Origin: Octopus sinensis
Taxonomy: Eukaryota
Direction of reading: 5' to 3'
Assembly: GCF_006345805.1 (NCBI RefSeq)
Contig: NC_042997.1
Span: 18,724,001-18,788,000 of the forward strand
Length of the DNA: 64,000 nucleotides
Shown here: positions 13,266 to 53,027 of the stretch, piece by piece
How positions within the stretch are numbered: the stretch's first letter is position 1
Layout: every line of letters begins with the position of its first letter
Notes under the pieces: generated by a model
Database searches by the model: none
Told to the model about the DNA's origin: nothing
The model's input: the letters and a program-made list of their open reading frames with translations, nothing else
Made by a program: the position numbers and the translations under genes

Positions 13266-13639
13266 ACAGTTCTTTATATTATTACATTTATATATTTGTT
13301 TTGCAAGATTTTTGATGTGAAATCGTGTGTTGAAACAGATATTGTTGTATTTAGGAATGGTCATTTTGCCAGTTAAGCCAATAAAAACACACGCACTATA
13401 TATTTGGTGTTACTTTGCTTCAGCGTTATTTATTTTTTTACATTAATCTTAATCTTATTTCGGCCAGAGTTCTTTCGTCACACTCCTGTGACCACATCAG
13501 TGGTCCTTTGCTTTCTTCTTTCTTATTTGTGTGTCTCTCCTTACTAACTGGTACCACCAAATATATAGTGCGTGTGTTTTTTTGGCTAAACTGGCAAAAC
13601 GACCATTCCTAAATACAACAGTTCTTTATAGTATTACAT
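13266..13639. mobile_element. Short element with ~70-bp internal inverted repeats, 22-bp flanking direct repeats and a central hammerhead-like motif
   Basis: IRs 13343-13413 / 13551-13620. Direct repeats acagttctttata(t/g)tattacat at 13266 and 13618. Confidence 0.7.
13462..13505 (-). ncRNA. Minimal hammerhead-like ribozyme motif (variant core)
   Basis: gacca-CTGATGTG-gtcac-aggagt-gtgac-GAAA-gaac-TC-tggcc. Perfect 5-bp stem II, stem I cca/tgg, core differs from CUGANGA at A9. Confidence 0.45.
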
Positions 13640-14145
13640 GAATGGCACTCCAAAATTAATTTCTGGAGCAAAATCCTGTAGTGAATGTCACTCACTTTTT
13701 AGAATGGAGAAACATGTTAAAATAAATGTACACACCATTATTTTGATTTTCACAACTTTGCATGCTCAAACCTCAGACCACTTCAGTTACTATTTTGTTT
13801 GTTATGTAAGTAAAAAAAGATCTATCTAGCTTCAAAGAACTGAAGAATTGAGTAGGTGAAATCACACTGAAATACCATGTCTGGAAGACCACTGGTGTAG
13901 CTTGGCACTTGGTGCATTTTTAGACACAAGCACTAAACACAGAGAATCGCTCTGTTAGACAAAATCCTCCAATCAAAGCCAATCACGTTATAGTGTGCAG
14001 GAATGTATTAAAAATAAATGCACACATTATTTTCATAGTTAAGATTTGATTGCTTATACTGAATACTTATGAATGCATATGTATGTATATATGTATGCAT
14101 GTATGTATATATACATACATGCATATATATATATATATATATATA

Positions 14146-14480
14146 AATTAGAAAAAAAACACCTTTTATCAATTCAAAATGAACAATTAAATTACACCAT
14201 CTAGAAAATTACATATAATAGGAATATTAAAATTGAAATAACAATAAAATGTCAATGTTTAAGTAAATTGCAAAAAATAATAATAAAAACATATATAATA
14301 GGTAGAATAATGACCCGTGTTTCATGGCTATGTGTAAGAAATGATTATAGTAGTAGAGAAATCACTTTGATATAACTATAGTCACTCATCATGTTAAAAA
14401 TAAATTAGAACAATAAAATAATTAATTAATAAATATACTTTAATCTAACAATAAAATAATTAATTAATAAATATGCTTTA

Positions 14481-14515
<35 letters not shown>

Positions 14516-14816
14516 GATTAAAGTATATTTATTAATTAATTATTTTATTGTTCTAGTTTATTTTTAACCTGATGAGTGACTATATTTATATCAAAGTGAT
14601 TTCTCTACTACTATAATCATTTCTTACATATAGCCACGAAACATGTGTCGTTATTCTACCTATTATATATGTTCTTATTATTATTTCTTGCAATTTACTT
14701 AATCATTGACATTTTATTGTTATTTTAATTTTAATATTTCTATTATATGTAATTTTCTAGATGGTGTAATTTAATTGTTCATTTTGAATTGATAAAAGGT
14801 GGTTTTTTTTCTAATT
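14146..14816. repeat. ~300-bp-arm inverted repeat of Penelope pLTR-like units
   Basis: 14146-14447 is the reverse complement of 14514-14816, with scattered mismatches. The spacer is a ~35-bp duplication plus (TA)n. Confidence 0.92.
14565..14653 (+). ncRNA. Type I hammerhead ribozyme (minimal stem III, extended stem II)
   Basis: taac-CTGATGA-gtgactatat...atatagccac-GAAA-c-atgt-GTC-gtta. Intact core, stem I taac/gtta, stem II 9/10 bp, GUC cleavage triplet at 14647-14649. Confidence 0.75.
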
Positions 14817-14922
14817 CTTTATATATATATTACATTGTGTAAAATTTGATTTAGTATTTCTAAATTGAATTTTTTCCTTGTAAGTTTGGATTTTATTCCC
14901 TCAAATAATAATCATATATATA

Positions 14923-14955
<33 letters not shown>

Positions 14956-15099: not shown

Positions 15100-15288
15100 C
15101 CCCATCCCGGTGGCATGTAAAAAGCAGCCACTACACTCACGGAGTGGTTGGTGTTAAGAAGGGCATCCAGCTGTAGAAACACTGCCAGATCAGACTGGAG
15201 CCTGGGGCAGCCTCCTGGCTTCCCAGACCCTGGTCGAACCATCCAGCCCATGCTAGCATGGAAAACAGATGTTAAACGATGATGATGA

Positions 15289-15292
<4 letters not shown>
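15100..15292 (+). mobile_element. RTE LINE 3' terminal fragment
   Basis: Same terminus and (GAT)n tail as 11425-12020. Confidence 0.85.
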
Positions 15293-15343
<51 letters not shown>

Positions 15344-51240: not shown

Positions 51241-51633
51241 TTCACGTCGGCGAACTCCAAGATCAGAAACGCCGTCTACTAATGCAAGGTTTACACGGAC
51301 TCAGATGTCTACGCTTATGTAGGGGCCTCATCGTCAAGATTGGCTTTACGAATCTCCAACCATTACGCAACTTTTCGAGACATGAATAAACGCCAGACCA
51401 CGGGACTTAGCAAGCTAATATGGCGATTGAAGAATACGAACTCAAGCTACAGGCTGGAATGGTCAATTTTGTCGGTGGCCCTCCCATTTGATAGGGGCAG
51501 AAGGATGTGCAACCTTTGTGTCTCCGAACTCTTCCATATATTGTTCGCCAGAGACCGGATGGTAAACGGACTTTTACAGTCGGCTTTTCGATGCCCCCAT
51601 TGGCGGCGTTATACTTATCTAGCTTATAAATAA
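51241..51633 (+). pseudogene. Penelope-type C-terminal GIY-YIG endonuclease (one in-frame stop at 51280)
   Basis: NAVY*CKVYTDSDVYAYVGASSSRLALRISNHYATFR...TGLSKLIWRLK...LEWSIL...CNLCVSE...N...RCPH matches the PLE EN pattern VY..YxG..RxxNH..LSKxIW..CxLCxxE..CxH. Confidence 0.85.
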
Positions 51634-52306
51634 CGCTTATAAATAATACCTGAACCCGGTTACACTACTTATATGAAAATAGCCCTTGGTAATAAATTCT
51701 GAAAAAGCCGTTAAGAGAAATTTGATCAACCATTGCAAGGGGAATTACTCCTGTGAGATGAATGGGGCTTTGTTTTTTGTCGACGGGGGGTTTCTTTGAC
51801 AAGGCATGATTAGACGAACACACGCACACATAAAATATTTTTCTGCCGCCCGACCGATCTTACAGCAGTGACCATTGTGTAGAGCTGTTTACCAACTGAC
51901 AGCCGCGCGATCAAACGCACACACGTACACATAAAATGTTTTCTACCCCTTGACGGATTTCTCGGCAGTGACCAGAATGTAGCGCTTCTTGCCAACTTGC
52001 GCCCGTACACATATATAGAACAGTAAACACACACATGTCTCTAAGTAGTTTTTGTCTCGCCCCATATAATACATCCGATATTCTTTAAATAGTCAGAACT
52101 TTAATCTCGGTCACAAAGAACATCTACACACCCCGTGCCCTCACCCACCGAAATGACCGCTGCCTGACCCGTTAAAATCTTCAACGCACCCACCACCCGT
52201 TTTCAACATACACTGATAAACAGTTTGGCCATGGGCTCTTAGGAGCCTAGTTCGATTTGTTTTGCTCCGCCTCTGTTCTGTTTTTGTTTTTTCCAACGGA
52301 TTTCCT

Positions 52307-52396
52307 ATTTCTTCCTGAGAGAAAGACACAATATGGTCTCATTATTCAATCGGAATTTGGTAAATTGTGCCTTTCGAAACACGTGTAGAATGAAAT
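52307..52396 (+). ncRNA. Hammerhead-like motif in the PLE 3' region (core lacks N7)
   Basis: ttc-CTGAGA-gaaagacacaat...attgtgcctttc-GAAA-c-acgt-GTA-gaa. Stem II 11/12 bp. Confidence 0.6.
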
Positions 52397-52602
52397 AAAA
52401 CGATTTCTGTTCAATCTTCGTTCAACTCCATTTCTTCAATTCACTAAAAATATTAAAATTCAATTATCCGCACCAACGCACGGTTGCAACACCATATGGT
52501 TGTACCTCCAACCGTGCTGTCTTCTGCTGTGATTTTTGCTACCAAGGTATCGGTTAAACTTTTGATTAATCTGCAACAAGATTATTCATCTTTCTATTTC
52601 GC

Positions 52603-52652
<50 letters not shown>

Positions 52653-52698
52653 ATATGTATATACATATATATGTCTGTGTGTGTATGGACATGTAGAT

Positions 52699-52794
<96 letters not shown>

Positions 52795-52932
52795 TAGAGG
52801 TAGAAAGATTTATAGATATTATTATATAGATATATATTAAAAACAGAATGAACAAGCAAAACATGTATCACTTTAGAACATTTTATTGATAATTTAAACA
52901 TTGTGCAGAGTAGCAATAGTAAATAGGTAAAG

Positions 52933-53027
52933 TTTCTTACATATGTTTCAAGAATAACTAAGCTTGTGGATCTTATATTATTGATTAAAGATTTACATGT
53001 CAGTCAGGTATTCCATCATCAGAGAGA
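52933..53027 (-). ncRNA. Hammerhead-like motif in an adjacent, unrelated pLTR-like unit (about 52830-53165)
   Basis: tct-CTGATGA-t-ggaata...tattct-t-GAAA-c-atat-GTA-aga. Confidence 0.55.

Follow-up and report, generated by a model that had tools for sequence, protein, structure and literature searches.

A long-stem-II hammerhead ribozyme, probably dead, in a truncated Hydra-clade Penelope-like element of Octopus sinensis

A hammerhead motif in a 64,000-nt stretch of Octopus sinensis DNA (the window) is, with high probability, the 3'-end hammerhead of a Hydra-clade Penelope-like element (PLE), left behind as part of a 5'-truncated inverted pair in a TA microsatellite. On the same reading, an active parent element would likely cut only as a dimer, joined through an 8-nt palindrome, and the copy in the window is likely inert. 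The motif is, in our view, a genuine ribozyme that is probably dead; it belongs to a known class, within which it represents a highly abundant variant of distinct structure.

Results

A canonical core with a long stem II

The motif carries a complete type I hammerhead core. Stem I (UAAC 14565-68 / GUUA 14650-53, 4 bp) brackets CUGAUGA (14569-75), GAAA (14638-41) and GUC (14647-49), and stem II (14576-85 / 14628-37) is paired at nine of ten positions, with one A-C mismatch. These features bear out the canonical core, stem I, 9/10-bp stem II and GUC of the original prediction. All core bases and the G10.1-C11.1 pair are intact; the sequence conforms to the type I consensus (CUGANGA, GAAA, NUH, three helices, open at helix I), and the predicted cut falls after C14649. 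The loop previously described as about 40 nt long is indeed long, but it includes another hairpin, made of an 8-bp stem (14594-601 / 14615-22) and 13 nt of loop.

Standard covariance models do not detect this hammerhead. Rfam, the check first proposed for it, gave no match to the motif at gathering score, and among 27 matches at E ≤ 10 there was no hammerhead family, likely because stem II is long. A loose hammerhead descriptor found two sites in the window, whereas 200 window shuffles of 2-nt blocks averaged 0.01 (2 of them had one site). The 101-nt stretch with the motif folds no better than shuffles (z -0.33), and the hammerhead fold (-7.1 kcal/mol) lies 4.3 kcal/mol above the minimum free energy (-11.4 kcal/mol). 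Contigs, of presumed or unknown type, from 20 of 24 runs include part of the stretch; some span the cut site, which is uninformative on cleavage.

Table 1. Positions of the features discussed (window coordinates, except for the two sister loci)
Feature	Position	Strand	Basis or remark
Type I hammerhead	14565..14653	+	core and stems read from sequence, folding
Helix III palindrome ACAUGUGU	14641..14648	+	copy comparison, predicted duplex energy
5'-truncated 3' end (pLTR) of Hydra-clade PLE	14515..14912	+	cut off at internal (TA)n
Tail, + arm only	14831..14912	+	same sequence as ORF leader in ORF-bearing copies
Inverted 5'-truncated partner without tail	14145..14480	-	repeat comparison
Degenerate hammerhead of inverted arm	14308..14396	-	copy comparison
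(TA)n tract at centre of inverted pair	14481..14515	.	sequence
Left flanking TA/TATG microsatellite, putative target	14077..14145	.	sequence
Right flanking TA/TG/TATG microsatellite, putative target	14913..14953	.	sequence
L158	G000:C4:78513500-78523499		young intact pLTR, 960-aa ORF, pLTR; plus inverted pLTR
L159	G000:C26:1190500-1200499		young intact pLTR, 960-aa ORF, pLTR

An inverted pair of truncated element ends

The hammerhead lies in one arm of an inverted pair of element ends (Table 1). The arms (344 nt, 91% complementarity) stand head-to-head across a (TA)n tract. At its 5' junction the inverted partner contains 38 bp duplicated in tandem (14409-14484), and its hammerhead core is dead: C3 is changed to A at 14392, with further alterations at C11.1, in the palindrome and in stem I. 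Four departures from the column majority of 36 distinct copies are shared by both arms, two of them rare elsewhere, which fits one insertion event; counting against one event, the copy nearest to the plus arm is L004 (2.4%), not the minus arm (4.7%). The unit was first described as about 300 bp long. It measures about 400 bp, a fragment left by truncation of a much longer element (about 5.5 kb). Within the tail, which is leader sequence in other copies, GTAAGT at 14878-14883 resembles a 5' splice site and varies between copies; Penelope leaders hold an intron.

Family copies lead into an RT and GIY-YIG gene

The unit is a high-copy repeat whose longer copies join it to a protein-coding gene. 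Searching the unit against its own genome gave 129 matches at 88-94% identity from 40 scored of 3,580 candidates. Exact patterns set lower bounds of 362 family copies, by a 27-nt stretch of stem II, and of 93 copies with an intact core; each control gave 0. The copies have a common 3' end and ragged 5' ends, some reaching more than 2 kb upstream, and the longer ones run into reverse transcriptase (RT) and GIY-YIG endonuclease on the strand of the hammerhead, with 2.4-3.1 kb from stop codon to hammerhead in seven copies; a value for L075 came from a false anchor and is left out. The RT frame has no majority stop over 518 codons in 14 copies, and RT and then GIY-YIG lie in one ORF. The pLTR shows as an inverted 5'-truncated copy, with a tail at one end, and sister families have the full pLTR-ORF-pLTR arrangement. 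The earlier link to Penelope pLTRs holds. No intact ORF of the window's exact family turned up among 97 scored of 13,610 candidates, where the longest open frame was 432 aa.

The same copies speak against a non-LTR retrozyme, that is, a short non-coding repeat spreading via tandem arrays and small circular RNAs. Such elements share with the window unit a type I hammerhead, low GC and the few hundred base pairs visible there (PMC7229834), and the unit's palindromic helix III, AT-rich composition and length of about 400 bp would suit one. Moreover, one same-strand pair 383 bp apart (C21) occurs among the 93 intact-core copies, and a 2026 preprint argues that retrozymes derive from PLE ends (10.64898/2026.07.22.740005). 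However, retrozymes form head-to-tail arrays of 150-450 bp units (PMC7229834), whereas the window unit is an inverted, truncated end of a protein-coding element. The family copies begin at varying 5' positions and continue into the PLE gene. Second copies, present in 11 of 35 loci, are inverted in all 11, and the window contains no tandem array of the unit. The self-standing non-coding mobile unit first envisaged is thus largely refuted, and we give it next to no credence.

Core conservation carries little information here. The core is intact in 24 of 36 compared copies, and departures number 9 of 420 within the core against 274 of 7,247 outside it, a difference that is weakly informative because copies were chosen by likeness to a query that includes the core. 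The conservation check suggested at the outset thus yields little within one family; stem covariation is seen between families. Separately, one insertion (L034, L037, L038 and L043-L047) has lost about 0.9 kb internally, endonuclease included, and occurs as at least five near-identical segmental copies on two contigs.

Clade assignment and intact sister elements

We assign the element to the Hydra clade by its motifs and by visual comparison with the supplement of PMC8557442; that paper and its supplement furnished the clade definitions and alignment. The element has DKT, the divergent RT4, the CxCX5C linker, CxxC and CxH, lacks CCHH and IFD, and its family copies insert into (TA)n, a Hydra trait. 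The RWK position reads KWK (RIKWK) in the window family and RIRWR in L158, and a length of about 5.5 kb is outside the Hydra tendency of less than 3 kb. Pfam found nothing significant for the RT or endonuclease pieces, nor for two full-length homologues. Searching for homologues brought up 66 proteins, most of them around 700 aa long and 33-44% identical; the few with a named source come from a sea cucumber and Octopus bimaculoides. Naiad was rejected, as the endonuclease is C-terminal here and N-terminal, without a canonical hammerhead, in Naiad. Domain order and the linker motif led us to set aside Neptune and Nematis.

Intact sisters show the complete arrangement. Among 12 loci around long open frames, L158 and L159 have a 960-aa ORF flanked by direct repeats that carry hammerheads. 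The repeats are spaced 5,570 and 5,602 bp apart, their identity in L158 is 99.5%, and hammerhead-to-hammerhead distance is 5,570-5,626 bp in L157-L159. L158 and L159 have an 85-nt stem II and a GC-centred palindrome, and their RT is 53% identical to that of the window family. Closer sisters (about 73-75% identity) have a stem II of 16-19 nt, so stem length changes easily.

The 3' region of these elements is non-coding and 2-3.5 kb long, with diverged internal repeats in the window family and U-rich, mutually unrelated sequence in the sisters. K/N-rich translations hinted at an antisense second ORF, which we rejected because, over 14 copies, all six frames have between 45 and 72 majority stops apiece and codon-position bias is absent; RT in the same copies, as control, had 0 stops and 73 synonymous versus 57 non-synonymous shared variants. 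Young sisters have no common ORF in the 3' region (three loci read, eight regions compared); a frame-shifted ancient ORF is conceivable. The sister family with the 16-19 nt stem II (L154-L157 and L164) has GT-rich internal repeats in this region and a stretch of about 900 bp with opposite strand bias and open frames of 100-174 codons.

Two fixed 3' ends past the predicted cut site

Copies end at two fixed positions. For the main copy this is 14910-14914 in 33 of 35 loci; for nine of the 11 inverted second copies it is 14829-14830. The 82 nt between these ends correspond to leader that stops about 58-79 nt before the ATG (three ORF-bearing copies). The two ends sit 263 nt and 181 nt downstream of the predicted cut, which implies that the RNA serving as template was continuous there, either never cut or re-ligated.

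By analogy, this pattern agrees with the PLE of the green anole, in which RT starts at two internal sites, making a tail, and mainly uses uncut RNA, and in which the hammerhead is assisted by protein and can be dispensed with in vitro (PMC11167929); the re-ligated circle proposed in PMC4209133 would fit too. The anole element, Poseidon PAc, also has AT-rich targets and two fixed 3' ends past the ribozyme that define its tail, with the cut 26 nt inside the ORF and RT starts within the ORF (PMC11167929). In the octopus element, unlike PAc, the predicted cut lies about 320 nt before the ATG and both ends are in the leader.

We propose the following model. The parent element would be transcribed from a pLTR-ORF-pLTR tandem, and its endonuclease would nick (TA)n. 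RT would start at one of the two leader sites past the cut, and early abortion of copying together with inversion would give two short ends. Two hammerheads could pair their palindromes and complete helix III, probably with protein help, and the pair would cut unit-length RNA from tandem transcripts as a processing or regulatory step. Insertion itself would not need hammerhead cleavage.

A self-complementary palindrome in helix III

The helix III palindrome is the feature that points to pairing between two ribozymes. The palindrome first described as acatgt is, in the family, the 8-mer ACACGUGU; in the window copy it reads ACAUGUGU. Position 14644 is C in 30 of 34 other family copies, and the C-to-T change here weakens the predicted self-duplex from -10.3 to -6.0 kcal/mol. 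Cofolding predicts that two intact copies pair exactly through their 8-mers and that the window copy pairs off-register. Families use CG, UA, AU or GC at the palindrome centre, which are all four self-complementary dinucleotides, and UG occurs in 2 of 11 cluster representatives. The centre is unpaired in the monomer, yet self-complementary, and this argues for contact between two molecules. Minimal PLE hammerheads are described as cutting weakly and only as dimers (PMC4209133).

Alternatively, the ribozyme could act as a monomer stabilised by its long stem II or by an element protein, with the palindrome serving as a protein-binding site or a plain hairpin. The anole hammerhead does need protein (PMC11167929), and the supplement of PMC8557442 draws Hydra hammerheads with an intramolecular helix III of 3-4 bp. 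We consider this improbable, however. An unpaired loop dinucleotide should not take four self-complementary forms while avoiding RR/YY, and a sequence-specific protein site would not vary that way; close sister families, moreover, do without a long stem II, which is therefore dispensable.

More than 12,000 matches to a long-stem-II pattern

Genome-wide counts favour dimer cleavage as well. The pattern CTGADGAG-N45-75-GAAACANNTGTM matched 12,405 sites in the genome, with a control of 6. Palindrome centres comprise 9,767 YR, 2,401 RY and, by subtraction, 237 (1.9%) RR/YY; the YR and RY classes include the non-palindromic centres CA, UG, AC and GU, and RR/YY is the class that is never self-complementary. 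That only about 2% of centres fall in this class supports dimer cleavage in active elements, the mode first suggested, though a few large families dominate the counts and the sites are not independent events.

Pairing in both stems is kept between hammerhead families. Grouping 68 distinct YR hammerheads gave 11 clusters. Across these, the proximal part of stem II retains 98 of its 110 pairs, against 62.1 ± 5.7 with shuffled partners, and stem I retains 35 of 44, against 20.7 ± 3.1. None of 5,000 shuffles reached the observed pairing in either stem, a result inflated by the mutual relatedness of the clusters. A Hydra-like same-strand match lies within 4.5 kb upstream in seven of the 11 clusters and is absent from that interval in four.

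We lean, by a modest degree, towards the view that the genome harbours a radiation of Hydra PLEs of double length, so far undescribed, whose long-stem-II hammerheads number more than 12,000 and are missed by Rfam. In such a radiation, switching of the centre among all four self-complementary dinucleotides, with avoidance of non-self-pairing classes, would be genome-scale evidence of selection for dimer cutting, and the young sisters L158 and L159 would make the role of PLE hammerheads testable.

Two further PLE hammerheads lie in the window itself. A second long-stem-II hammerhead with an intact core, of another family and with a UA centre, occupies 52935-53025 (minus strand); its predicted cut follows GUA at 52938, a TA/TAGA microsatellite comes next, and no Hydra-like coding match lies within 4.5 kb upstream. 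A third PLE end (51262-52606, plus strand) includes a Hydra-type endonuclease fragment (51262-51630, E 4e-17) and, at about 52310-52390, a hammerhead of the most abundant family with a one-base core deletion. The third end and the 52935-53025 element meet tail-to-tail across a microsatellite (52606-52836).

The window copy is likely inert

The copy at 14565-14653 is an old one and, judging from predicted structures and its surroundings, likely inert. A transcript through both arms would form a predicted hairpin of -428 kcal/mol that buries the ribozyme. Age, seen in arms that already differ by 4.7%, the weakened palindrome, the lack of a tandem partner and this read-through hairpin together point to inactivity, and the off-register predicted dimer and a hammerhead fold above the minimum free energy add to the doubt, so that activity, first put forward as possible, is unlikely for this copy.

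Might the copy nevertheless still cut RNA, be it host intron or read-through transcript, on its own or in trans, perhaps after co-option? It retains every core base, G10.1-C11.1 and the 4-bp stem I, it differs from the column majority by 2.3% against a family mean of 4.1%, two-thirds of the compared copies (24 of 36) keep the core, and U-G centred palindromes can still wobble-pair. Yet besides its weakened palindrome it has lost one stem II pair (14627), it lacks a tandem partner, the inverted arm is dead, the long hairpin is predicted to sequester it, and an ORF scan recognised no host exon nearby. We judge continued cutting very unlikely, and retain the reading of an inert copy.

Discussion

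Published work already covers hammerheads at the ends of PLEs and their cleavage as dimers, inverted tail-bearing ends, and an Octopus family of the Hydra clade. The window element resembles the Hydra clade of PMC8557442, including Hydra-1_Obim of Octopus bimaculoides, in its C-terminal GIY-YIG, DKT, divergent RT4, GLYRDD, CxCX5C linker, CxxC, CxH and (TA)n targets, and in its sense hammerhead near the 3' end, inverted 5'-truncated partner and tail. It differs from the families listed there in unit length (about 5.5 kb versus 2.0-2.7 kb for complete Hydra families), in its 2-3.5 kb non-coding 3' region, in the stem II region (53-85 nt versus at most about 25 nt in listed Hydra hammerheads) and in the tail (82 nt versus the 30-40 bp described for Hydra). 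Compared by eye, RT and hammerhead also differ from those of Hydra-1_Obim (PMC8557442). A long loop 2 occurs in a spike-moss PLE (PMC8557442 supplement).

Minimal PLE hammerheads as described in PMC4209133 share with the octopus motifs a short helix I, a longer helix II and a palindromic helix III. In both cases the motifs are scattered in their thousands, singly or on opposite strands, a genome holds many families, and a dimer model is proposed. Unlike them, the window family has no extra base between A9 and G10.1, and its stem II is much longer, with a distal hairpin (PMC4209133). The main text of an octopus repeat annotation mentions Penelope elements, and neither ribozymes nor Hydra (PMC13282606). 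We found no account of these long-stem octopus hammerheads in the literature searched, a scope outside which most subscription papers fall.

The window locus alone is an ordinary fossil; the hammerhead class matters moderately. The role of PLE hammerheads is puzzling, since almost every clade retains them although insertion in vitro can proceed without them. The palindrome-centre pattern amounts to a natural compensatory-mutation experiment for the dimer model, and the intact young elements offer both RNA and protein for a reconstituted test of the ribozyme's role. Standard models miss thousands of ribozymes in the O. sinensis genome.

Other repeats occur near the element. An interspersed repeat of about 190 bp ending in (GAT)n/(TA)n, probably a SINE, has at least six copies in the window, one of them at 15109-15340. 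A 71-bp inverted repeat pair (13343-13413 and 13551-13620, 94%) is possibly a small DNA transposon.
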